Part shown: piece by piece, positions 5,842 to 48,811 of the stretch
Numbering within the stretch: position 1 is the stretch's first letter
Layout of the letters: each line of letters begins with the position of its first letter
Source: Gemmatimonadales bacterium
GTDB lineage: Bacteria; Gemmatimonadota; Gemmatimonadetes; Gemmatimonadales; GWC2-71-9
Reading direction: 5' to 3'
DNA: 64,000 nucleotides
NCBI GenBank assembly: GCA_050183815.1
Contig: JBFXAY010000006.1
Coordinates: 49,208-113,207 of the forward strand
Notes under the pieces: generated by a model
The model's input: the letters and a program-made list of their open reading frames with translations, nothing else
The model's database searches: none
Told to the model about the DNA's origin: nothing
Program-made: the position numbers and the translations under genes

Positions 5842-8262
5842 ATGCGAGATTTCTTCCAGGACGTCCGGCTCGCCTTCCGGTCCTTCGTCCAGGCTCCGGG
5901 GTTCACCGTCGTGGCGGTGCTCTCCCTGGGCCTGGGCATCGGCTCGATGTCGACGATCTACCTCTGGACCGACCGCTTCATCCTGAATCCGCTGCCCACG
6001 GTGCCGGGCGGCGACGAGTTGACGTTCGTGCGGACCCGCGGGCCCGAGGACGCGATCTACTCGATCTCCTACCCGACCTTCAGGGACTGGTCCGAGCGGA
6101 ATCGCGCCTTTGAGGGGCTCGCGGTCATGACCCTCGAGCGCGTCGGCGTGCGGGAACGCGACGGTGAGGCCGTCGAACGCGCCTTCGCCCTGCTCGTCAG
6201 CGGCAACTACTTCGACGTGATGCAGGTCCGGGCGCTCCACGGCCGGACGTTCTATCCGGACGAGGATTCGTCGGCGGCCCAGGTGGCGGTGTTGGGGCAT
6301 GACTACTGGCAGCGCCGGTTCCGGGGAGACCCGGGGATCGTCGGCCGCGGCATCGTGATCAACGGCCAGCGGGTCGAAGTCGTCGGCGTGATGCCACCCC
6401 GGTTCGGCGGCAGCTACGTCGGCCTCGACCTCGATCTCTACCTGCCGGTCTCGAACTATCGAGCCCTCAACCTCGGGCGCAGTCGGCTCGACGACCGCGG
6501 ATCGATGTTCCTCGAGGGGATCGGGCGGCGCAAGCCGGGGATTTCCCTCGCCGATGCCCAGGCCGACATGGAACGCGTTGGCCGGGAGCTGGACGCCGAT
6601 CTTCCCGAGGCGTCGAATCATGCCGTGGTGGAGCCGCTCGATGGCCAGGGCGCGCCGTCGACCATGAAGCCGATCTTTTTCGCGCTGCTGGGCGTCACCG
6701 CGCTCGTCCTCCTCATTGCCTGCGCCAACGTCGCGAACCTGCTGCTCGCGCGGGCGGGGAGCCGGGAACGGGAAATCGCCGTACGCGCGGCCATCGGCGC
6801 CGGCCGGCTTCGGCTGATCCGGCAGCTGCTCACCGAAAGCGTCCTTCTGGCGTTGGGTGGCGCCACCGTCGGGCTGTTCCTGGCCTATCTCGGTCGCGGT
6901 GCCCTCGTCGAAATGCTCCCGCCGGCGCCGTTCCCGGTGGACTTCCGCTTCGACATGAACTACCGGGTCGTCGGCTTCGGCCTGGTCGCAGCGCTTGGCA
7001 CCGTGCTGCTCTTCGGCGTTTGGCCCGCGTTCCGCGCCACCCGGCCGGACCTCGCCCCGGTGCTGCGGTCGTTACCGAGCGGCAGCATCGCGAAGAGCGC
7101 GGCCCGCTCCGTCCTCGTGGGCGGCCAGATGGCCCTCGCCGTCGTGGCGCTCGTTTCGGCGGGTCTTTTCCTCCGGGCCATCGATCGGTCGCGCAGACTG
7201 GACCCCGGCTTCGCCAAGCCGGAGACCCTGCTGCTCGTCGACACCGATCTCTCGATCGCCGGACTCGATGGCGACAACGGGCCGCCCGCAGTGGCGGCCC
7301 TCCTCGACCGGCTCCGGTCGGTTCCCGGAGTCGTGGATGCCTCGACCGGCAGCTTCGTCCCGCTCGGGTGGTCGTGCTGCAACTCCGCCTCCGCCGAGCC
7401 GGAGGGCTACACGCCCCGCCCGAACGAGAACACCTCGGTCGTCTACTCACGGGTCAGCCCCCGGTATTTCGAGACCATGGGGATTCCCGTCCGCTCCGGG
7501 CGAACGTTTCAGGCCTCCGACGATCGAACCGCGCCGCGCGTCGTCCTCGTCAACGAGAGCTTCGTGCGCCGGTACTGGAACGGCCTCGAGCCGATCGGTC
7601 GCCGGATCCGCCAGGCCGGGGCCGACTTCACCGTCATCGGCGTGGTGGCCGATGGGAAATACCGCACCCTCGCGAGCGACCCGTTCCCGATCATCTACCG
7701 GAGCTTTGCCCAGAGTTATACCGAGGGCTTCACCATCCACGTCCGGGCGGACGGCGATCCCTCCGGGCTGGTCAACGCCCTCCGCCGCGAGTTCCTCGCG
7801 GTCAATCCGGACCTGCCGTTCCTGAGCCCGCGGACCATGCGCCAGGAAATGCAGCAGTCGACGATCGGACAGGAAATCGGATCCCGGACGCTGGCGGTGT
7901 TCGGCGCGATCGCGCTGCTGCTCGCGGCGGTGGGTGTCTACGGCGTCATGTCCTTCCTCGTGACGCAGCGGACCCGCGAGATCGGGATCCGGGTGGCCCT
8001 CGGGGCCGCCGCGGGCACCGTGAGCCGACTCGTGATCGGCCGGGGGCTCCGGATCACCTTGATCGGTGCGGCGGTCGGCGTCGTGGCGGCCCTCGGTGCC
8101 GGCCGTCTCCTTCAGGGCCTCCTCCTCGGGGTCAGCCCCGCCGATCCCCTGACCTTCGCCGCCATCGTGTTCCTGCTCGTGGCCGTGGCGGTGGTGGCTT
8201 GCCTCGTGCCGGCCCGCCGGGCAGCCCGCATCGATCCCGTCATTTCCCTCAAGGCGGAGTAG
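5842..8262 (+). CDS. Duplicated FtsX/MacB-type ABC permease (ADOP-like, two MacB_PCD + FtsX halves)
   Basis: 806-aa ORF. Two repeats of TM + large periplasmic domain + a 3-TM FtsX block are visible (REREIAVRAAIGAG... and RTREIGIRVALGAA...). Confidence 0.9.
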   Translation: MRDFFQDVRLAFRSFVQAPGFTVVAVLSLGLGIGSMSTIYLWTDRFILNPLPTVPGGDELTFVRTRGPEDAIYSISYPTFRDWSERNRAFEGLAVMTLERVGVRERDGEAVERAFALLVSGNYFDVMQVRALHGRTFYPDEDSSAAQVAVLGHDYWQRRFRGDPGIVGRGIVINGQRVEVVGVMPPRFGGSYVGLDLDLYLPVSNYRALNLGRSRLDDRGSMFLEGIGRRKPGISLADAQADMERVGRELDADLPEASNHAVVEPLDGQGAPSTMKPIFFALLGVTALVLLIACANVANLLLARAGSREREIAVRAAIGAGRLRLIRQLLTESVLLALGGATVGLFLAYLGRGALVEMLPPAPFPVDFRFDMNYRVVGFGLVAALGTVLLFGVWPAFRATRPDLAPVLRSLPSGSIAKSAARSVLVGGQMALAVVALVSAGLFLRAIDRSRRLDPGFAKPETLLLVDTDLSIAGLDGDNGPPAVAALLDRLRSVPGVVDASTGSFVPLGWSCCNSASAEPEGYTPRPNENTSVVYSRVSPRYFETMGIPVRSGRTFQASDDRTAPRVVLVNESFVRRYWNGLEPIGRRIRQAGADFTVIGVVADGKYRTLASDPFPIIYRSFAQSYTEGFTIHVRADGDPSGLVNALRREFLAVNPDLPFLSPRTMRQEMQQSTIGQEIGSRTLAVFGAIALLLAAVGVYGVMSFLVTQRTREIGIRVALGAAAGTVSRLVIGRGLRITLIGAAVGVVAALGAGRLLQGLLLGVSPADPLTFAAIVFLLVAVAVVACLVPARRAARIDPVISLKAE

Positions 8263-8999: not shown

Positions 9000-9003
<4 letters not shown>
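8326..9003 (+). CDS. ABC transporter ATP-binding protein (MacB/LolD-type), copy 2
   Basis: Walker [10 protein letters not shown], signature LSGGQQQL, Walker [12 protein letters not shown]. The stop overlaps the next gene's start (GTGA). Confidence 0.9.
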
Positions 9004-10376
<1,373 letters not shown>

Positions 10377-10389
10377 ACCAGGCCGCGGG

Positions 10390-11724
10390 GTGAGGCGGCT
10401 CGCCCACGACCAGCGGATCTTCGCCCTGGCACTGCTCGCGGGGCTGCCCGCTCTCGTGGCCGCCGGCATTCTCCTCTTCCGGACCGACACCAGCGGCCTC
10501 TTTCGCTGGACCATCCTCGGCCTGCTGGCCGCCGTCTGGCTCGGCGCCGCCCGCGCCGCCCAGGTCCGGGTGGCCCGCCCGCTCCAGGTCATCGCCAACA
10601 TCGTCGCCGGCCTGCGCGAGGGCCACTTTACCATCCGGGCCCGCGCCGAAGAGGGCACTGATGTCCTCGGCGCGCTCCGCCGCGAGCTCAATCAGCTCAG
10701 CGAGACGCTCAAGGAGCAACGCCTCGGCGCGCTCGAGGCGGATGCCCTCCTCAAGCGGCTGATGGAGGAGATCGACGTGTCGGTCTTCGCCTTCGACCCC
10801 GAAGGCGTGCTCCGGGTCACCAACCGGGCCGGCGAACGTCTCCTCGGCCAGCCGAGCGAGCGGATGCTGGGCCGAACGGCGCGGTACCTCGGACTCGAGA
10901 CCTGCCTCGAGGGCGAGACCCCTCGGATCATCGAACTCACCCTGCCCGGCACCGGATCCGGGCGCTGGGAACTCCGCCGCCGGAACTTCCGGCAAGGCGG
11001 TCTTCCGCTCGAGCTCGTGGTGCTGGCGGACATCAGCCGGGTGCTCCGGTCGGAGGAACGCCAGCTCTGGCAGCGGTTTGTGCGGGTGCTGAGCCACGAG
11101 ATCAACAACTCGCTCGCTCCGATCAAGTCGGTGGCGGCCACGCTGACCGGTCTCGTGGATCGCTCCCCCCGGCCGCCGGACTGGGAAGAGGATCTCCGCA
11201 GCGGCCTCGACGTCGTGGCCGCCCGCGCCGATTCGCTGAACCGGTTCATGGCGTCCTACGCCCGCCTCGCGAAACTGCCGCCCCCGACTTTCGGGCCCGT
11301 CAGTATCGGCGCCTGGATCGCCCGGGTCGCCCCGCTCGACCAGCGGGTACCGGTCGTCGTGGAACCCGGGCCCGAACTCACCATCGAGGCCGACGCCGAT
11401 CAGCTCGACCAGCTCCTCATCAACCTGGTCAAGAACGCCATCGAGGCGTCCCTGCCGTCCGGCGGACCGGTGGAGATCGGTTGGGTCGAGCATGCCGACA
11501 CCGTCGAGGTGTCGGTCCGGGACCAGGGCCCCGGTCTGGGGTCGACGGCCAACCTCTTCGTCCCCTTCTACACCACCAAGCCCAGCGGCTCGGGGATCGG
11601 CCTCGTCTTCAGCCGCCAGGTGGCCGAGGCCCACGGCGGCCACCTCCTGGTGGCGAACCGGACCGACCGGCGCGGCGCCGAGGCCCGAATCGTTCTCCCC
11701 AAGACGGCCCGGCGGGACGCCTAG
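10390..11724 (+). CDS. Sensor histidine kinase (2 TM, HAMP, PAS, HisKA, HATPase), partner of the NtrC-type regulator
   Basis: 444-aa ORF. H-box LSHEINNSLAPI, N-box LINLVKNAIEA, G-boxes DQGPGL and GSGIGL. Confidence 0.88.
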   Translation: MRRLAHDQRIFALALLAGLPALVAAGILLFRTDTSGLFRWTILGLLAAVWLGAARAAQVRVARPLQVIANIVAGLREGHFTIRARAEEGTDVLGALRRELNQLSETLKEQRLGALEADALLKRLMEEIDVSVFAFDPEGVLRVTNRAGERLLGQPSERMLGRTARYLGLETCLEGETPRIIELTLPGTGSGRWELRRRNFRQGGLPLELVVLADISRVLRSEERQLWQRFVRVLSHEINNSLAPIKSVAATLTGLVDRSPRPPDWEEDLRSGLDVVAARADSLNRFMASYARLAKLPPPTFGPVSIGAWIARVAPLDQRVPVVVEPGPELTIEADADQLDQLLINLVKNAIEASLPSGGPVEIGWVEHADTVEVSVRDQGPGLGSTANLFVPFYTTKPSGSGIGLVFSRQVAEAHGGHLLVANRTDRRGAEARIVLPKTARRDA

Positions 11725-42957: not shown

Positions 42958-43067
42958 CTCCCGCGCATCACAGTAGCAGTAGGGTCAGCCAACCCTTCCC
43001 TTTGAGCCCCCTTGCTCAGACCAACGGCTGATCCAGTACACCCGAGGCTCCCAGCCGAGGGTCAGGG

Positions 43068-43098
43068 CAACCCCGCGACGGCGGGGTTGTTCTGTTTT
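43068..43098 (+). terminator. Rho-independent terminator
   Basis: CAACCCCGC-GACG-GCGGGGTTG, followed by TTCTGTTTTCGT. It lies 110 nt after the RD-rich gene stop. Confidence 0.65.
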
Positions 43099-43167
43099 CG
43101 TCTCCGGGCTCCCGCCGCTCGTCGCCCGGGGTGACATTTCCGCAACGCACCGTCTCGAGGTCAGGTC

Positions 43168-43791
43168 ATGGTCGGATTGCTCGCCGTCGCCGTTCTCTGT
43201 ACCGCCCCTCCGGCGGGGGCCGCCGCCGCCGATTCGCTGGCCGCTCTCTATCAGCAGGGCCGGTCGTGGACGGAGTTCCTGGCCGGGGCCAACGCCCGCC
43301 GCGACGCCTGGGTGGGCAACTATCGGGATGGCGAAGCCGACTCGGCCGCCGTCCAACGGGTCCGGCAGCTGGCGGGTCGCTGGCGGCTGCTCGTCGTAGC
43401 CGAGGACTGGTGCTCCGATTCGGTCAACACGTTGCCCTACGTCGCTCGGCTGGCCGAGGCCGGCTCCGCGCTCGAGATCCGCATCATTGGCTCGGCGGTG
43501 GGCCGCGCGGTGATGGCGAGCCACCCCACGCCGGACGGGCGAGCGGCAACGCCGACGATGATCGTCATCGACGAGGAGGGTCGCGAGGCGGGCTGTTTCG
43601 TCGAGCGTCCGGCAGCGCTGCGAGCATGGCTCGCGGCGGGCGGCGGCCGGAACAAGGCGGAGTGGTATCGCGAGGATCGCGGCCGTTCCACCGTGACCGA
43701 CCTGCTCGACCAGCTTGGAGCGGCGTCAGCGCGCCGGCTCGACGGGCCGAACCCGGACGGTGAGGCCGGATACCGCTGCACCGTCCGCTGA
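43168..43791 (+). CDS. Thioredoxin-fold family protein (Thioredoxin_9-like), secreted, degenerate active site WCSDS
   Basis: 207 aa with a signal peptide. The LLVVAEDWCSDSVNTLPYVARLAE block is typical of this family. Confidence 0.7.
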   Translation: MVGLLAVAVLCTAPPAGAAAADSLAALYQQGRSWTEFLAGANARRDAWVGNYRDGEADSAAVQRVRQLAGRWRLLVVAEDWCSDSVNTLPYVARLAEAGSALEIRIIGSAVGRAVMASHPTPDGRAATPTMIVIDEEGREAGCFVERPAALRAWLAAGGGRNKAEWYREDRGRSTVTDLLDQLGAASARRLDGPNPDGEAGYRCTVR

Positions 43792-46278
43792 AGCCGCCAA
43801 GGTGAACCGCAGCGCCTCGGCGGCAAGGCCGAGGCGCTGACCGGTGGCCGGGTCGAGCGACAGCTCGTACTCGCCGGGCCGGATCCCCATCGCGTAGAAC
43901 TCCCCGTCGCTGAAGCTGACGATTCGGCGTATCTGTCCCGTGCCGAGATGCCGGAGGACCAGGGTCACGCCCGGTGCCCCGGCCGAGTCGGCGCGGAGGA
44001 CCTTGCCGTCGATGACGCCGCCGGGTGCGATGGGAATGTCGACGATGCGGTACCGATTCGGTCCCGGCTCGACCGCCACGGCAGCCCGGGTCGGGACCCA
44101 GAGCGGTGAGGCGAGCGTGGCCGAGTCGACCGCCACCACGGCCGGTTCATAGGGCGTGACGTTCCAGAGGCGATACTCGCCCCGCGCGTCGGAGACCCGG
44201 GTTTCGAGGCCGACGCTTACCCGGACGTTGGGAAGCAGGGGTTCGCCGTCGTCGAGGCGTTCGTTGCCGTTCTCGTCGAGGAACACCCGCCCGGCGACGC
44301 CCGCGCGCTCGACGGAGGGACCGGCCGAGAGTTGGACCCGGCCGGCCTGGCGGTCGAGCAGGACCGAGCCCTGGACGTACTGGCTCGCGGTCGTGCCGGT
44401 CCGGCGGGCCGCCATCGTCGCGAACGCCCGCACCGTCTGGAGGTTGGCGGCGACGTTGACGCTGAGCAGCGGACCCTGCAGGGCGCTCCACCCGCCACCG
44501 GCCTCGAGCCGCACCGAGCGGGAGAGATTCCGGCCGGCGAAGACCGTGACGGCCGACGGCCGGAGTGACGACTCGGCCTCGACGAAGAAGCGCGCGGTGG
44601 CGGCGCCGAGCACCGGTCCGAGGCTGCGGAGCGGAAGCAGATAGCCGTTGACCTCGAAGCTGGTCCGCCGCGCCGGGCCGCCGCCCGCCCCGCGCTGCCA
44701 TCGCACGGCCGGCAGCAGTTGCAGTTCGTGGTATTGAACGGCACCGCCGAGGCGTCCGCTCGTCAGCGTCCCGGTTTCCGTTCTGATCAGATCGACGCCG
44801 CCCTCCACGAACCAGTCGCCCGATCCGTCGGCGGGGCGGTAGAGGCCGGTGAACGTGACCTGCTCACGGCGGCCCGGTACGGTGACGATCGGATCCGCCA
44901 CCCCGCGGGCGAAGCGAGTGGCTTCGATGCCGAGTGCGAGGCCGACGTTGGGTTCGAACCGGAGGGCGGTCCGCGCGATCGCATGGCCCACCACCTCGGC
45001 TTGTACGCCGAAGGCGTTGCCCACCGAGCCGACGATCCCCGCGTATGGGTGGAAGAGGTTGCCCACGGAATCCGGTCGCCAGAAGCGATCGAGGCCGGCC
45101 TGGGCGGTCCATCGGGTCGAGAGGCCGTAGCGGACGTCGGCGTTCGCGGTGGCATCGCAACGGTCGGTGCGGCAGGCGCCGAGCGAGGCACCGTACTCGA
45201 CCCGGCCGGCGCGGACCCGGTTGGCGTCGACCCGGTGGGCCCGGCTGAAGCGGCGGACCTCGCCGAACGGTCCGTAGGCGATGAATTCGACCGCGTTCTC
45301 GCCGTAGGCGATCGGCGCGTCGATGGAGTACTGCCCGAGGGCGTTCACGGAGTCGTACGCGAGCAGGCGGCCGCCGCGGTAGGCCTCGACCTCCCAGCCG
45401 GGTCCGAGGTTTCCCGTGAAGGCGACCTCACCCAGGTCGTTGGGCCGAAGCCACGGCGCGTTGCCGATGGTAAGGCCGCGAACCGAGCGGGGCCGGGGTC
45501 CGGAGCTGACGCCGTCGCCGAGGCGGGCTTGGGCAAGCCAGGGATTGTTCCGCCAGGTCCCGGCCCAGGCGACGTCGGTGCGGGGGCCGCCGGTTGCCGC
45601 GGTGCCGCTTTGTACGGCCGCAGTGAAGGAGCCGCCGAAGAGGTCGAGGCCCAGGGCGGTCGAATAGGCAGCGTTGCGGAGGCTGGTGCCCGCGGGCGCG
45701 AACACGCCGTAGTCAACGACGAGGCCATCGATGGCGCGGCGCGGTTCGGCGAGCAGCGGGGCCTCGATCGGCCCATCCCCGCGGCTCGCCGCTGTCCGGC
45801 GACGCCACTCGCGGGTGATCCGCACGGCGAGCGGCAGCGCGGAGGGGTCGACCAGTGTGGCCGTCAGGTCGGGCCAGTTGACGTTCCAGTCACCCTGGAG
45901 GAGCTGGCCCAGGACCGTGGCGGCGAGGAACCATTCCCCGTTCTGCCGGAATAGCTGCGTGGCCGCGAACGGCCATTCCCGCTCCGCGCGACGCACGGTG
46001 CCGCGGACCGGATCGATCGTGAGCGAAACGCCCGACGGTTGCAACACGGCGACGAAGCGGTCCTCGCGAACCCGCGCCTCGACCTCGGCGAGTTCGAGTA
46101 CCGCGCCGACCGGGAGCAGGGCGTCATTGCCCTGGCGGAAGGCGGGAAGGGTACGCGAGGCGAGTCGACCGAGGGCCACCTCGAGGATCACCGGCTCGGG
46201 GGCCGAATCCCGCGCAACGCTTTGCAGCGTCAGGGGCGCGACCGGGAGGATCGCGAGGACGAAGCCGAGCGCGATCAC
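43726..46278 (-). CDS. Usher-like outer-membrane fimbrial assembly protein with C-terminal CarboxypepD_reg/SdrD-B-like Ig domains
   Basis: 850 aa. The GTG overlaps the chaperone stop (GTGA). Middle block RSVRGLTIGNAPWL...GNLGPGWEVEAYRGGRLLAYDSVNALGQYSIDAPIAYGENAVEFIAYGPFGEVRR resembles an usher plug/barrel segment. C-terminal domains RVFLDENGNERLDDGE... and GVIDGKVL.... Confidence 0.65.
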   Translation of the reverse strand: MIALGFVLAILPVAPLTLQSVARDSAPEPVILEVALGRLASRTLPAFRQGNDALLPVGAVLELAEVEARVREDRFVAVLQPSGVSLTIDPVRGTVRRAEREWPFAATQLFRQNGEWFLAATVLGQLLQGDWNVNWPDLTATLVDPSALPLAVRITREWRRRTAASRGDGPIEAPLLAEPRRAIDGLVVDYGVFAPAGTSLRNAAYSTALGLDLFGGSFTAAVQSGTAATGGPRTDVAWAGTWRNNPWLAQARLGDGVSSGPRPRSVRGLTIGNAPWLRPNDLGEVAFTGNLGPGWEVEAYRGGRLLAYDSVNALGQYSIDAPIAYGENAVEFIAYGPFGEVRRFSRAHRVDANRVRAGRVEYGASLGACRTDRCDATANADVRYGLSTRWTAQAGLDRFWRPDSVGNLFHPYAGIVGSVGNAFGVQAEVVGHAIARTALRFEPNVGLALGIEATRFARGVADPIVTVPGRREQVTFTGLYRPADGSGDWFVEGGVDLIRTETGTLTSGRLGGAVQYHELQLLPAVRWQRGAGGGPARRTSFEVNGYLLPLRSLGPVLGAATARFFVEAESSLRPSAVTVFAGRNLSRSVRLEAGGGWSALQGPLLSVNVAANLQTVRAFATMAARRTGTTASQYVQGSVLLDRQAGRVQLSAGPSVERAGVAGRVFLDENGNERLDDGEPLLPNVRVSVGLETRVSDARGEYRLWNVTPYEPAVVAVDSATLASPLWVPTRAAVAVEPGPNRYRIVDIPIAPGGVIDGKVLRADSAGAPGVTLVLRHLGTGQIRRIVSFSDGEFYAMGIRPGEYELSLDPATGQRLGLAAEALRFTLAASADGAAVSGLTVRVRPVEPAR

Positions 46279-47117
46279 GGGAGGACGACGGTCGCTTCGG
46301 TGCTGGAGGCCGCGGCCTGGACCAGTTGTTCCGGCGGAAGATCGGTGCGATCGGTGCGGAATTCGAGGCGGAGGCGGTAGCGGCCGGCGGCCGCGGTGCC
46401 GAGGGGCAGGGCGAACCGGGGTTCAGCCTCGGTGTAGATCGCGATCGGGGCCGAGAACCGGCCCGCCACGCCACCGCGTTCGTCGAGCAGCGTGCCGGAG
46501 ACGGTGCCGATGAAGGCGGCGTTGCCCTGCCGGACCAGGCGGGTCCGGACCAGCAGCGAATCGCCCTGACGTTCGGCCGTCGGCGGTTCGGCGGTGATGC
46601 CGGTCGAGACCCCGCCTTTGCGGTACTGGAGCGGGATGATGGTCCGGACCTCGAGATTCAGGCCGACCGTGATGCCGGCCGGTGCAGAGTCGGCGAGCGT
46701 GACCGGTGCCTGGCCACCCCGCGCCGTGATCATGATCCGGCTCCAGTACTCGCCGTCGGCGAGGTTGGCCGGCGGACGGCCGAGGAGCCGCACCGTCTGA
46801 CGCTCGAGGGGGCCGATGACCATTCGACGGGGGTAGGCCTCGATCCATTCTGCGGCGGAGCGGCGGTCGCCGGTTCCGGGCGGAGTGGCAAGTTCGAAGT
46901 CGCCGGCCGAGTCGGTGACCGGATAGCCGAAGAAGGTGGAGATTGAGATCTCCGCCGGTTCCGACCCGGGATTGTAGAGCGTGATCGAGGCGCTGCGGGT
47001 CCGGTGGTCGACCACCACCGCGTGCGGAGCGACGAGCACGCCCTGGGCCGCCGCCCGTTCGGGCGCGAGGCCGGCAAGCAGCCCGGCCGCGAGTACGGGG
47101 AGCAGGACGGCCTTCAT
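46275..47117 (-). CDS. PapD-like periplasmic fimbrial chaperone
   Basis: Start at ATG 47117 with a signal peptide (MKAVLLPVLAAGLLAGLAPERAAAQG). Two Ig-like halves. The block ...ITLYNPGSEPAEISIS...YPRRMVIGPLERQTVRLL resembles the chaperone 'PP.f.L.P...q.vRi' block. Confidence 0.65.
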   Translation of the reverse strand: MKAVLLPVLAAGLLAGLAPERAAAQGVLVAPHAVVVDHRTRSASITLYNPGSEPAEISISTFFGYPVTDSAGDFELATPPGTGDRRSAAEWIEAYPRRMVIGPLERQTVRLLGRPPANLADGEYWSRIMITARGGQAPVTLADSAPAGITVGLNLEVRTIIPLQYRKGGVSTGITAEPPTAERQGDSLLVRTRLVRQGNAAFIGTVSGTLLDERGGVAGRFSAPIAIYTEAEPRFALPLGTAAAGRYRLRLEFRTDRTDLPPEQLVQAAASSTEATVVLP

Positions 47118-47575
47118 CAGAAAACCGTTACCGTGAGTACGACGGTGTTGGTGTAGGTACCGACCGGCTGGTTGGCGGCCGGTTGGACCGTGCCGCCGAG
47201 CCAGATGTTCGCATCGGCGCTCGTCACCATCGTGTAGTTGACGTTGCTGTTCGGATTGAAGAATGCGGGCAGGCTCGTCGGCCCCGTGCCCTGGGCCATC
47301 GCATCGTTCGGGCCGAAGCGGATGCGCATCTGGGCCCCGCCCGGGCCATTGAGCCGGCTCGGCAGCGTGAGACGGATCCGGATCCGGGTCCCGATGCCCG
47401 GTGTGCTGAAGTAGAATTGACCACTGCGGACCGGGTCGGTCGGGCTGACCGATTGGTCGACTCCCTGGAGCACGGGACCGAAATCCAGATCGCGGACGCC
47501 CTGCACGACCAGCTGCGCCGAACACGGCGCAGCGGTCATGACGAGGGTCAGCAGAGCGAGACTCGATCTCGGCAT
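47117..47575 (-). CDS. Csu/SCPU- or DUF4402-like fimbrial subunit 2
   Basis: Start at ATG 47575 with a signal peptide. DLDFGPVLQG near the N-terminus and a C-terminal GTYTNTVVLTVTVF signature. The stop overlaps the chaperone start (TGATG). Confidence 0.7.
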   Translation of the reverse strand: MPRSSLALLTLVMTAAPCSAQLVVQGVRDLDFGPVLQGVDQSVSPTDPVRSGQFYFSTPGIGTRIRIRLTLPSRLNGPGGAQMRIRFGPNDAMAQGTGPTSLPAFFNPNSNVNYTMVTSADANIWLGGTVQPAANQPVGTYTNTVVLTVTVF

Positions 47576-47667
47576 CGGGGCGTGGTGCGCTCGGGTCGGG
47601 CCCGGGCGGACTGCCGGCAAACATAGTCAGCACCCGCCGGGCGCGAGCCGGAGCAGGATCCCAGGCC

Positions 47668-48180
47668 TTAGAAGTACGTCAGGGTCATCGTCACCGTGTT
47701 GGTGTACGTCCCGACGGCCTGACCGGCCGCGGGCGACACCGTGGCGCCGACGAACACCCAGAGCCGGCCGGTACCGGTCACGTTGCCGAAGCTCGTGGCC
47801 GTAGTGCCCGCCATGTTGGCGATGGCGGTGCAGCCGCTGGTGTTGACGGCCGCCGCCTGGTTGTAGCAGCCGGTCCAGGTGCCGATCGGCAGGTTGTTCG
47901 CCCCGTTCACGAGGTTCGCCGGCAGCGTGAAGTTGATGTTGACCGGTGCGTTGACCGTGCCGGTCGCGTCGAACCGGCCGGCCGCGGCCGCGGTCGAGGC
48001 GATCGTGGCGGGCGTGCCCTGGAGCACGATGCCGAAGTCGAGGTCCTGGCCGGCCGCGATCGTGATCGGCTGGCGGACGACGGCTCGGGCGTTGATGGTG
48101 CCGTTGGTCTGGGCGGCAGCCGCGGAGGCCAGGCTCAAGCCGGCGGCGACAGCGACCGATACTCGGGTGAAGATACGCAT
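47668..48180 (-). CDS. Csu/SCPU- or DUF4402-like fimbrial subunit 1 (likely the major subunit)
   Basis: Start at ATG 48180 (MRIFTRVSVAVAAGLSLASAAAAQ). DLDFGIVLQG and a C-terminal GTYTNTVTMTLTYF. It is a paralogue of 47117-47575. Confidence 0.75.
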   Translation of the reverse strand: MRIFTRVSVAVAAGLSLASAAAAQTNGTINARAVVRQPITIAAGQDLDFGIVLQGTPATIASTAAAAGRFDATGTVNAPVNINFTLPANLVNGANNLPIGTWTGCYNQAAAVNTSGCTAIANMAGTTATSFGNVTGTGRLWVFVGATVSPAAGQAVGTYTNTVTMTLTYF

Positions 48181-48265
48181 GGTGCCCTGCTCCCTCTGTC
48201 GGATGTTCGGGTTCGCTTTCCTGGTTCGGGGAGTGGCCGCTCCGCCGAACTGACTGAGGGAGGGG

Positions 48266-48280
48266 GCAACCGGCGTGCCA
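48266..48280 (-). promoter_or_regulatory. Consensus sigma-54 promoter of the fimbrial operon
   Basis: The minus strand reads TGGCACGCCGGTTGC, an exact match to TGGCACG-N4-TTGC. It lies 86 nt upstream of ATG 48180, and an AT-rich (~40% GC) tract sits immediately upstream (48290-48365). Confidence 0.7.
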
Positions 48281-48387
48281 GCGAAATTCAGGTGTGAACA
48301 TCGAAGTCGCTTTATCGGGATTGAGATTTGTAATGCGTTGTCACGTATACTTTTATAGAGTGGACTAGGTGTCCGATTCCTGGCCAT

Positions 48388-48738
48388 TTGATGAAGCCAT
48401 TCCTGCCCCCTTCTGAGGCAATTGGGGCCGTTCGGCCCCAAACGCCCGAGCCCGGGGTCCGGCGTCGGTTTGGCGTGTTTCTCGGCCTTGCCGCGGTGGG
48501 ATTTCTGCCGGCGGCGGCGCAGGCGCAGGCCGGTTCGCGGGCGCTTCAGGCCCGGGTGGTCGTGGTCCGGCCGGAGGCTGGGGCGGGTCAGCTGGCGGTG
48601 GCTCGGTCGCTCGCCCTGTCGGCGTCAGCCCGCCGGGTCGAGGCGGGTCTGGCGACGGTGATTTCCTCCCGCCGGGCGGCGGCTCCGGCCCCCGGGGACC
48701 GGCCCCGCGTCATCACGATTCAGTTCCTCCGCAACTAG
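48388..48738 (+). CDS. Hypothetical small secreted protein (116 aa), uncertain
   Basis: The ORF has a signal-like segment (FGVFLGLAAVGFLPAAAQAQA). It is divergent from the fimbrial operon and upstream of cysD. No motif recognised. Confidence 0.35.
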   Translation: MMKPFLPPSEAIGAVRPQTPEPGVRRRFGVFLGLAAVGFLPAAAQAQAGSRALQARVVVVRPEAGAGQLAVARSLALSASARRVEAGLATVISSRRAAAPAPGDRPRVITIQFLRN

Positions 48739-48811
48739 CGCCGTTCCATTGCCGGCCGGGCCTCGGTCCCGAGTCGGCGCGGTATATTCCCGCCATGGCG
48801 ATCGAGTCGCG

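Follow-up and report, generated by a model that had tools for sequence, protein, structure and literature searches.

Classical pilins of chaperone-usher systems carry a glycine at position -14 and a penultimate tyrosine at their C-terminus. The archaic (sigma-class) pili are the chaperone-usher class known outside Proteobacteria (PMC10104325), and their pilin CsuA/B ends in a C-terminal phenylalanine, Phe152 (PMC4654587). On the regulatory side, sigma-54 has been tied in many phyla to control of the cell exterior, flagella and pili included (PMC3162934; see also PMC7170775). Here we analyse a four-gene operon in a stretch of 64,000 nucleotides (the window), which is in our judgement quite likely to be a minimal chaperone-usher fibre system of Gemmatimonadales transcribed from a sigma-54 promoter.

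Operon layout and protein families

The operon lies on the minus strand and comprises genes for subunit 1 (47668-48180; 170 aa, ATG start), subunit 2 (47117-47575; 152 aa), a PapD-like chaperone (46275-47117; 280 aa) and an usher (43726-46278; 850 aa, GTG start). An AGGGAG Shine-Dalgarno sequence stands 10-15 nt before the ATG of subunit 1, the stop of subunit 2 overlaps the chaperone start in TGATG, and the chaperone stop overlaps the GTG start of the usher in GTGA; reading frames and junctions agree with the four genes originally predicted at 43726-48180. Subunit 1 is likewise followed by subunit 2, the chaperone and the usher, in that order, in 80 loci from species genomes of Gemmatimonadales/Gemmatimonadota, and an identical copy of the operon occurs in NCBI assembly GCA_050248255.1. 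Conservation of the flanking genes ends at the closest relatives, and in some genomes (L065, L078) a third DUF4402 gene is inserted between chaperone and usher. Because the homologues with named sources all belong to Gemmatimonadales/Gemmatimonadota genomes, the host is non-proteobacterial, as had been supposed. In public annotation the machinery is labelled "hypothetical".

The proposals that the 280-aa protein is an Ig-fold chaperone and the 850-aa protein an outer-membrane beta-barrel usher both agree with AlphaFold2 models searched with Foldseek. The chaperone model (pLDDT 89.7) has a PapD-like fold of two all-beta domains, and its top matches in the PDB are almost all chaperone-usher chaperones (E 1e-8 to 1e-7, probability 1.0), among them YadV, Caf1M, FimC, CsuC and CfaA. 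The usher model (pLDDT 81.2) aligns over ~750-925 columns with full-length FimD (E 3.8e-28) and with PapC (E 4e-23), and it also matches the isolated translocation pores 2vqi and 3ohn; it comprises an N-terminal domain, a beta-barrel into which a plug region is inserted and, at the C-terminus, two beta-sandwich domains that are SdrD_B-like and CarboxypepD_reg-like. The window copies of both proteins are unmatched by the Pfam chaperone and Usher models. Among orthologues, PapD_N is weakly matched in 20 of 45 chaperones (E ~0.01), and the ushers match CarboxypepD_reg (41/41) and SdrD_B (38/41), with Usher PF00577 found in only 4/41 (E ~0.01). Alignment of the family profiles by hhalign with E. 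coli FimD, FimC and FimA gave no significant result (probability <=2%). As the sequence signal from Pfam and hhalign is weak, the assignment rests on the predicted structures, which support a chaperone and an usher of the chaperone-usher type; the machinery, though of this known kind, is highly diverged.

Both small proteins have the features first noticed in them, namely signal peptides, a DLDFG.VLQG block and the C-terminal signature GTYTNTV(T/V)(M/L)T(L/V)T(Y/V)F, and they are 35% identical over the core. Their likeness to DUF4402 proved to be family membership: all 41 scanned family members match this domain across the whole model (best E 1.4e-9), with subunits 1 and 2 of the window at E 1.2e-4 (23.2 bits) and E 2.1e-4 (22.4 bits), below the Pfam cut-off of 25.2, and precomputed annotation places PF14352 on most subunit orthologues. 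The label Csu-like holds only loosely, given marginal Pfam matches to SCPU and Usher and no CsuE-type adhesin. SCPU is weakly matched by 6 of the 41 members (E 0.07 or worse; E 0.32 for subunit 2 of the window), and some subunit orthologues bear the JGI label 'spore coat protein U-like'. Nothing relevant was found when the subunit profiles were compared with PDB sequences.

The two subunits differ at their N-termini. Subunit 1 possesses an extension of ~14 residues (T-I-N-A-R-A-V-V-R-Q-P) with alternating hydrophobic positions, which its orthologues carry throughout and in which A31, A33 and V35 are nearly invariant. The distance from the mature N-terminus to LDFG is 21-22 residues in subunit 1 and 7-8 in subunit 2, and the extension is missing from every subunit-2 orthologue with a correctly located LDFG motif. 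At the other end the family has an invariant G157 and a nearly invariant Y169; in subunit 1 of the window these residues occupy -14 and -2, and the last residue is Phe. Subunit 2 shares the LDFG core and the C-terminal chaperone-binding motif of subunit 1. We infer that subunit 1, a DUF4402-family protein whose extension is donor-strand-like, is the major pilin, with a presumed pilin fold and putative donor-strand exchange. Subunit 2 has no such extension and is therefore probably the tip, or first-assembled, subunit. The original prediction that a separate tip adhesin is absent stands in that the operon contains no two-domain adhesin gene, but subunit 2 is better read as a single-domain tip without a donor strand.

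The promoter and other non-coding elements

An exact sigma-54 -24/-12 consensus had been reported 86 nt upstream of the first gene, and it proved unique in the window. The element, TGGCACGCCGGTTGC, lies at 48280-48266 on the minus strand and ends 86 nt before the ATG at 48180; TGGCAC-N5-TTGC has no second match in the 64 kb, for which shuffles give a chance expectation of 0.02 (any match in 2 of 100 shuffles). YGGCAY-N5-TTGC recurs in 74/74 related loci with upstream sequence, each time 65-95 nt before the subunit-1 start. On both strands of the 80 loci, two more copies precede extra subunit-1 paralogues and a single match is stray. The GG and TTGC, at canonical -24/-12 spacing, are invariant across loci and the spacer is free to vary. 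Because it keeps the same position in 74/74 orthologous loci, the site is, on comparative sequence grounds, a strict phylogenetic footprint for which a chance match is ruled out, and the operon is predicted to be RpoN-dependent. No sigma-70-type consensus promoter was found in 43000-48800.

The window also encodes, on the plus strand, an NtrC-type sigma-54 activator (9000-10376; Sigma54_activat E 1e-64, Response_reg, HTH_8), whose loop reads GAFTDA versus the canonical GAFTGA, and an adjoining sensor kinase (10390-11724; HATPase_c, HisKA, PAS). This pair (9000-11724) shows that the genome uses sigma-54, and might tentatively be put forward as the cognate regulator. In L074 an orthologue of the activator with 71% identity is located 1.2 kb away from a pilin paralogue that is sigma-54-driven, and in L065 one lies ~4.4 kb upstream of the operon; an activator is found within 6 kb in 2/80 loci, and none is consistently linked to the operon. 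A gene for RpoN was not found in the 64-kb window; Gemmatimonas aurantiaca carries a sigma-54 gene (PMC3162934 supplement).

Directly upstream of the promoter on the minus strand is the AT-rich tract that had been described there, with 43% GC at 48281-48400 versus 69.5% in the whole window. The same trend holds for 73 anchored upstream regions (72 related loci and the window), where GC is 44-53% at -100 to -20 versus ~70% further upstream, and the tract may act as a DNA-bending or looping region. Some 145-160 nt upstream of the -24 element the inverted repeat GGGGCCG-TT-CGGCCCC (48424-48440, no strand) is a candidate enhancer, that is, an activator-binding site. L001-L004 and L006, the closest relatives, keep GGGGCC-N4-GGCC(CC) at the same position, and other clades have different palindromes upstream of the promoter; this one palindrome is the only candidate activator-binding site definable for the clade of the window. 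The transcription start is predicted near 48254 from promoter geometry. In the 5' UTR, folding predicts a stem-loop at 48224-48250 (minus strand; GGCGGAG-CGGCCA-CTCCCC region) that is no better than shuffles (z -0.9, single window sequence); GGGGAG-CGGCCA-CTCCCC is kept in the closest relatives, and L007 and L012 retain the pairing with a different stem sequence.

A long hairpin (47576-47667, minus strand) separates the major pilin gene from the remaining operon. In the window it has an MFE of -47.6 kcal/mol (z -2.3) and the apical loop UAUGUU at 47620-47625, the conserved loop being usually UAUCUU. Of 72 loci, 93% have a strongly structured spacer at the corresponding place (median z -3.8), and TATCTT or a near variant forms the hairpin apex in all 49 of the 73 examined spacers that have it, borne on two unrelated stem sequences. 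There is no Rfam match for the hairpin. This stable hairpin probably raises the pilin message over the assembly-gene message.

Assembly scheme and competing readings

We propose that sigma-54 RNA polymerase would bind TGGCAC-N5-TTGC at 48266-48280 and that the start near 48254 would need an ATP-dependent enhancer-binding activator, which, bound upstream, would contact the polymerase across the AT-rich tract; the hairpin behind the subunit-1 gene would then leave more pilin message than assembly-gene message. Sec signal peptides would export all four products, the 280-aa chaperone would capture the DUF4402 subunits in the periplasm, and the 850-aa usher would provide both the pore in the outer membrane and the platform for assembly. 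Through its ~14-residue extension, in which small hydrophobic residues alternate, subunit 1 would form head-to-tail polymers by donor-strand exchange. Subunit 2, as an acceptor body lacking the extension, could cap only the distal end and would likely be assembled first. The operon products would in this way form a fibre.

The promoter part of this scheme would be mistaken if YGGCAY-N5-TTGC were the binding site of another factor and transcription began at an unrecognised promoter of a different type. The promoter types of Gemmatimonadota are without experimental characterisation, and rpoN was not seen in the window; yet the invariant positions are exactly those of the -24/-12 consensus, at canonical spacing around a variable spacer, and the element stands on the sense strand at a set distance from the start codon in every one of the 74 loci. 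Its duplication along with extra pilin genes, the sigma-54 activator in the window, the presence of rpoN in Gemmatimonas and the lack of a sigma-70-like consensus near the operon further argue against another factor, which we regard as highly improbable.

Alternatively, the chaperone-usher machinery might export the DUF4402 subunits to build no discrete pilus but a polyadhesin that is thin and flexible, a layer resembling a capsule, or a coat. Named examples of such an outcome are Caf1/F1 antigen and the Myxococcus spore coat protein U. Such a product would suit an operon whose only subunits are two small single-domain proteins and which lacks a lectin-type adhesin of two domains, the faint SCPU or 'spore coat protein U-like' signal in some sources, and a chaperone that matches Caf1M, an assembler of a capsule-like polymer, about as well as FimC. 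However, the alternating-hydrophobic extension of subunit 1 implies linear polymerisation through donor strands, and at the molecular level such a polymer is still a fibre; this reading differs from ours in morphology and not in mechanism. Also, we know of no sporulation in Gemmatimonadota. We consider it distinctly unlikely. It is unlikely, too, if a little less so, that subunit 2 is not a tip but an accessory working in the periplasm or with the usher, a minor subunit of an alternative kind, or a protein that terminates or anchors assembly. The tip role is based only on the missing N-terminal extension, and the third DUF4402 gene in L065 and L078 means that roles may exceed two fixed ones. 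Against this, under donor-strand exchange an acceptor body without a donor strand fits the distal end only, subunit 2 has the same chaperone-binding motif and LDFG core as subunit 1, and known terminator subunits such as PapH retain the donor strand. We therefore keep subunit 2 as the probable tip.

Comparison with known systems

With the type 1 (Fim) and P (Pap) pili of E. coli the locus shares predicted structure, the usher model matching FimD, PapC and the pores, and the chaperone FimC, PapD and YadV. The pilin C-terminus also has Gly at -14 and a penultimate Tyr, and, as in the Fim system, the major pilin gene comes first and a hairpin follows; behind fimA of E. coli K-12 the small RNA FimR2 is annotated in the 3'-UTR. 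In contrast, there is no detectable sequence similarity to FimD, FimC or FimA (hhalign probability <=2%), subunits are far fewer, the host is from another phylum, and predicted sigma-54 control takes the place of an invertible switch or Lrp/Dam control.

The promoter arrangement recalls the sigma-54/PilR promoters of type IV pilins, where likewise the major pilin gene stands directly behind the -24/-12 element and an NtrC-family activator would be needed, but the machine regulated here is a chaperone-usher system. RpoN-driven chaperone-usher pili in such a high-GC non-proteobacterial background had been put forward as undescribed; a limited literature search turned up no report of a chaperone-usher operon directly behind a sigma-54 promoter. 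Sigma-54 control of surface appendages as such is known (PMC3162934).

The archaic Csu (Acinetobacter baumannii) and CupE (Pseudomonas aeruginosa) systems have the same parts: small pilins, a PapD-like chaperone and an usher. The likeness to Csu extends to the putative N-terminal donor strand of ~13 residues and the C-terminal Phe of the major pilin (PMC4654587), to CsuC among the structural matches of the chaperone, and to the faint SCPU signal in the subunits. Unlike Csu and CupE, however, the subunits here fall in DUF4402 and not in SCPU (E 0.07 or worse), the usher of the window goes unrecognised by Pfam Usher, with SdrD_B and CarboxypepD_reg as the models matched by its C-terminal domains, and there are neither minor pilins nor a two-domain tip adhesin of the CsuE/CupE6 type, in place of which stands a single-domain subunit without a donor strand. 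The operon also lies behind a sigma-54 promoter, and we know of no direct sigma-54 promoter for csu or cupE. Finally, DUF4402 (PF14352) is still entered in Pfam as a domain of unknown function. Both operon subunits and 41/41 scanned relatives fit this family, and because its members are encoded here next to a chaperone and an usher in an operon that is conserved, our analysis suggests that proteins of this branch of DUF4402, at least, act as pilins.

Operon organization and distribution

The window contains the four minus-strand open reading frames on which the original prediction of a sigma-54-driven chaperone-usher (CU) operon was built, namely those for subunit 1 (47668-48180, 170 aa), subunit 2 (47117-47575, 152 aa), a PapD-like chaperone (46275-47117, 280 aa) and an usher (43726-46278, 850 aa), and both the TGATG and GTGA overlaps at their junctions can be read in the sequence. 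All four products have visible N-terminal hydrophobic signal-like segments; hence, the cluster displays the organization typical of CU systems, with overlapping or tightly spaced genes and Sec signal-like segments on every component. The start of subunit 1 was placed at the ATG at 48180; an AGGGAG ribosome-binding site and comparison with orthologue N-termini both support this choice. Two longer frames, one of 257 aa over subunit 1 and another of 452 aa over subunit 2 and the chaperone, were dismissed as high-GC artefacts.

Gene order in the sequence subunit 1, subunit 2, chaperone and usher is common to the examined related loci (here numbered L001-L080), barring truncations at contig ends. 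These are the best 80 of the 170 places with a confirmed chaperone relative in a scan that took one genome per species, and all 80 come from Gemmatimonadota. Variations on this theme include an extra subunit-1 paralogue upstream of the operon with its own sigma-54 promoter (L044, 4005-4595; L074, 3749-4334) and a third DUF4402 gene inserted between the chaperone and usher genes (L065, 6813-7337; L078, about 6912-7316). The flanking cysD/cysN, Thioredoxin_9 and MFS genes were excluded from the system, their synteny being limited to the closest relatives, and the four genes therefore constitute a module of their own. When 1.84 billion representative proteins from metagenomes were searched with a profile, about 1,870 clusters of the usher family at 50% identity were recovered (E < 1e-30), and those chaperone and usher homologues that carry source names belong to Gemmatimonadales or Gemmatimonadota metagenome-assembled genomes. 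A tblastn search of PLSDB plasmids with subunit 1 gave no match. An identical copy of the operon is present in the NCBI assembly GCA_050248255.1, where, as in most other records, the products are labeled "hypothetical protein", "carboxypeptidase-like regulatory domain-containing protein" or "DUF4402 domain-containing protein"; hints of "PapD" and "spore coat protein U-like" occur only in JGI COG-based names.

Several features were noted in the surroundings of the operon. The usher gene shares its last 66 nt (43726-43791) with the 3' end of a convergent Thioredoxin_9-family gene on the plus strand (43168-43791), and no terminator-like site was found between the two. Beyond it, a plus-strand gene (42394/42463-42957) codes for a secreted protein without a Pfam match, whose C-terminal tail is extremely rich in Arg and Asp (RDRDRDR repeats); relatives of this protein follow the usher in 12 related loci. 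On the other side, a divergent plus-strand frame (48388/48475-48738) encodes a small secreted protein of 87-116 aa with a signal peptide but no recognizable family; it lacks a Pfam match, has weak relatives in only four loci (L001, L003, L015 and L021) and was likewise placed outside the system.

Chaperone, usher and pilin-like subunits

Sequence searches were nearly silent on the assembly proteins. The window copy of the 280-aa chaperone matched nothing in Pfam or NCBIfam; the 850-aa usher matched CarboxypepD_reg in Pfam (residues 756-807), together with two weak chance-level hits, and nothing in NCBIfam, with PF00577 (Usher) not being detected. Phmmer searches of PDB sequences with both proteins gave no relevant match. 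We therefore built orthologue alignments (45 chaperones and 41 ushers), predicted structures with AlphaFold2 and compared these with the PDB using Foldseek. The chaperone model (pLDDT 89.7) consists of two all-beta domains, and its PDB matches are almost without exception CU chaperones, drawn from every class and including YadV, Caf1M, FimC, SafB, DraB, CupB2, EcpB, CfaA and CsuC (E 1e-8 to 1e-7, probability 1.0). In its predicted fold this protein is hence the periplasmic two-domain Ig-like (PapD-like) chaperone of a CU system.

The usher model (pLDDT 81.2) retrieved full-length FimD (E 3.8e-28) and PapC (E 4e-23), in alignments of about 750-925 columns, as well as the isolated translocation pores of PapC and FimD (2vqi, 3ohn; E 1e-14 to 1e-13). 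From the N-terminus, it comprises a beta domain (~28-142), a helix, a run of long barrel strands, roughly 22-24 by an approximate count on the model, and two C-terminal beta-sandwiches; the barrel run is interrupted at ~250-345 by a small beta domain in the position of the usher plug. The predicted structure thus reproduces the N-terminal domain, plugged barrel and C-terminal domains of outer-membrane ushers. Structure prediction had been named as a test that could refute the claims that the 280-aa protein is an Ig-fold chaperone and the 850-aa protein a beta-barrel usher, and both withstood it. Weak signals in the orthologue sequences agree with these models, PapD_N being detectable in 20 of the 45 chaperones (best E 0.012; none for the window copy) and PF00577 in 4 of the 41 ushers (best E 0.008). 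The C-terminal sandwiches of the usher correspond to SdrD_B (38 of 41 orthologues) and CarboxypepD_reg (all 41). Alignment of the family profiles to E. coli FimD, FimC and FimA with hhalign was not significant, a comparison in which the single-sequence templates limit power. Taken together, the faint Pfam echoes and the lack of significant hhalign scores point to a very diverged branch of the CU pathway.

Both small proteins carry the features ascribed to them in the original prediction, i.e. a signal peptide, an LDFG block and a C-terminus of the form GTYTNTV...T(Y/V)F, and they share ~35% identity over their core. In the window, subunit 1 and subunit 2 score 23.2 and 22.4 bits against DUF4402 (PF14352), whose gathering cut-off is 25.2, and the match of subunit 1 spans the whole model (positions 1-129). 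All 41 relatives scanned match this family (best E 1.4e-9), most carry PF14352 in precomputed annotation, and orthologues at 50-55% identity exceed the cut-off. Although the window subunits fall ~2-3 bits short of the strict threshold, their sequences are thus clearly homologous to DUF4402 by transitivity. Against the spore coat protein U family (SCPU, PF05229), subunit 2 reached only E 0.32, subunit 1 had no match, and 6 of the 41 relatives gave hits (best E 0.068). Profiles of the subunit family found nothing relevant among PDB sequences; the only hits, a weak one at E 0.0013 to a carbohydrate-binding module and another at E 0.85 to a biofilm surface protein, were judged to be chance or compositional matches. 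From their sequences we infer that the subunits probably adopt an Ig-like, strand-deficient fold.

The two subunits differ in the segment that precedes this core. In subunit 1 there are ~21-22 residues between the signal peptide and the LDFG motif and in subunit 2 only 7-8, a difference that holds in every locus with both N-termini readable. The extension of subunit 1 shows alternating small hydrophobic residues (I-N-A-x-A-x-V-x-Q-P), of which A31, A33 and V35 are nearly invariant. In CU systems, a neighboring subunit has its fold completed by such an N-terminal extension, the donor strand (PMC4654587, PMC10104325). As subunit 2 has the body without the extension, the distal end would be its sole possible position, and we accordingly read subunit 1 as the putative polymerizing pilin and subunit 2 as a putative single-domain tip subunit that would be assembled first. 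The original prediction had stated that no separate tip-adhesin gene is present; this stands in that there is no two-domain adhesin, and needs amendment in that subunit 2 may itself form the tip. A Cys in the signal peptide raised the prospect of subunit 2 being a lipoprotein, which we rejected because this residue is absent from most orthologues. The subunits end with an invariant Gly at position -14, a penultimate Tyr and then a Phe; the Gly(-14)/penultimate-Tyr arrangement is what we take to be the classical chaperone-binding motif of pilins. The terminal Phe parallels Phe152 of CsuA/B, the carboxylate of which is held within the cleft of the chaperone (PMC4654587). In archaic chaperones an Arg of the F1 strand and a Tyr/Arg pair of domain 2 provide this anchor (PMC4654587), and in the present family the invariant residues R110, R114, Y228, R196 and R257 are candidates for such a role.

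The predicted sigma-54 promoter and the post-pilin hairpin

The exact sigma-54 consensus reported for this operon, TGGCACGCCGGTTGC, occupies minus-strand positions 48280-48266 and ends 86 nt from the ATG, and the AT-rich tract described before it is equally evident, the 120 nt upstream having 43% GC vs 69.5% for the whole window. TGGCAC-N5-TTGC has this single match in 64 kb, with 0.02 expected from shuffles. No sigma-70-type consensus promoter was found within 43000-48800. All 74 related loci with upstream sequence have YGGCAY-N5-TTGC in sense orientation, at a distance of 65-95 nt from the start codon of subunit 1; GG and TTGC never change in these sites, and no such constraint is seen on the five-base spacer. 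On both strands of the 80 loci the pattern was found elsewhere just three times, twice directly upstream of the subunit-1 paralogues of L044 and L074 and once as a stray occurrence. Both the placement of the consensus and its conservation around a varying spacer are those of a sigma-54 promoter, and we regard this conservation as the strongest new result of the analysis.

All clades show AT enrichment between about -100 and -20. Strong palindromes situated 50-110 nt upstream of the -24 element differ between clades: one clade has TTCAAGGTGT-N11-ACACCTTGAA, another CGTC-N9-11-GACG, and that of the window has GGGGCC-N4-GGCCCC, a candidate activator site at 48424-48440. These elements look like activator-binding enhancer sites that may have diverged from clade to clade, the promoter remaining constant. 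The window itself codes for an NtrC-type activator (9000-10376, plus strand; Sigma54_activat E 1e-64) with a receiver, an AAA+ sigma-54-interaction domain and a Fis-type HTH, which is adjoined by a PAS sensor kinase, the pair (9000-11724, plus strand) being 38 kb from the operon. Its sigma-54-contacting loop reads GAFTDA, vs the canonical GAFTGA. A 71%-identical orthologue is found in L074 (1169-2530, minus strand), 1.2 kb from the sigma-54-driven DUF4402 pilin paralogue, and another in L065 (near 400, minus strand), ~4.4 kb from the operon. This proximity offers only a hint that the activator might be functionally linked to the operon. The 64-kb window does not contain rpoN. Almost all LPS-bearing diderm bacteria possess sigma-54 (PMC3162934), and Gemmatimonas aurantiaca T-27 has an orthologue (PMC3162934 supplement). 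Just downstream of the predicted transcription start near 48254, the 5' UTR includes a stem-loop, GGGGAG-CGGCCA-CTCCCC (48224-48250, minus strand), that the closest relatives conserve; one mismatch interrupts the stem in the window copy, and L007 and L012 maintain the pairing through another stem sequence.

The 92-nt spacer between subunit 1 and subunit 2 (47576-47667, minus strand) is predicted to form a long hairpin (-47.6 kcal/mol, z -2.3). As the spacers were not alignable by MAFFT and RNAalifold, the hairpin was analyzed by per-sequence folding and loop anchoring. Of 72 loci, 93% have strong predicted structure in the corresponding spacer, the median z being -3.8 relative to mononucleotide shuffles. 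TATCTT or a near variant is found in 49 of 73 spacers, including that of the window, where it is TATGTT (RNA loop UAUGUU), and in all 49 the motif forms the predicted apex of the hairpin; the loop is common to two unrelated stem sequences. A search of Rfam with 47000-48800 gave no family matches.

The simplest reading is that the hairpin acts as a partial terminator or 3'-end stabilizer, raising the level of pilin message over that of the assembly genes. Such an excess of pilin message is usual in CU operons. Conservation of the loop in the face of divergent stems suggests a more specific role than this, and the element could be a 3'-UTR small RNA or a protein-binding loop. The annotated small RNA FimR2 of E. 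coli K-12 sits in the equivalent position after fimA. Alternatively, the hairpin could embed an internal promoter with TATCTT as its -10 box.

Comparison with known systems

The observation behind the original prediction is confirmed by these results, and its interpretation is supported. CU assembly, its occurrence outside Proteobacteria and the control of surface structures by sigma-54 are already established. What is new is the lineage and the extent of divergence, the machinery having been missed by the Pfam and NCBIfam searches tried, along with what we read as DUF4402 pilins and a tip subunit devoid of a donor strand. To these may be added an apparently strict, clade-wide sigma-54 wiring and a conserved predicted hairpin after the pilin gene. 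In the open-access literature searched, we found no mention of DUF4402, Gemmatimonadetes and "chaperone-usher" were co-mentioned only in passing, and no CU operon with a direct sigma-54 promoter came to light, such absences being weak evidence. A phylum-wide ecogenomic and genome survey of Gemmatimonadota lists type IV pili as the only appendages (PMC10581226).

Standard annotation overlooks the operon, offering "hypothetical" or "carboxypeptidase regulatory-like" for the chaperone and usher at NCBI and a DUF for the subunits in Pfam. With the operon recognized, Gemmatimonadota would gain a predicted organelle for adhesion or biofilm formation, part of DUF4402 would have a suggested function, and very diverged chaperone and usher sequences would become available to studies on the evolution of the CU pathway. 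Members of this phylum are abundant in soils and waters, with only a handful having been cultured. Strict sigma-54 wiring would imply that expression is switched on by a signal acting through an activator, and would add a CU system to the surface structures under sigma-54. A more far-reaching proposal, which we put forward tentatively and consider rather unlikely to hold as a whole, is that the operon is the first recognized member of a separate CU clade, spread across Gemmatimonadota and lying outside the classical, alternative and archaic classes. Such a clade would be marked by pilins of the DUF4402 family, by a single-domain tip subunit that has no donor strand and by CarboxypepD_reg and SdrD_B domains at the C-terminus of the usher. 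The proposal would also assign the first function to DUF4402, hard-wire the clade to sigma-54 and an NtrC-type two-component system, and make the UAUCUU-loop hairpin a functional RNA, be it a FimR2-like 3'-UTR small RNA or a protein-binding site.

With respect to the classical Fim system, hhalign comparisons using single-sequence templates revealed no sequence similarity to the operon proteins. The archaic Csu/CupE class has SCPU-family pilins, whereas the subunits of this operon are not SCPU, with 41 of 41 relatives matching DUF4402. Csu/CupE systems also possess a two-domain tip adhesin (CsuE/CupE6-like), in contrast to which the only subunits here are two single-domain proteins of 152-170 aa; no further subunit paralogues are encoded elsewhere in the window. 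CU clades are formally defined by usher phylogeny. In the modeled folds of its chaperone and usher, as in its gene organization, the operon nevertheless has the features by which CU systems are defined at both the fold and the operon level, and would be expected to work like a CU pilus. It thereby extends known mechanisms to a new lineage and does not overturn the current understanding of them.
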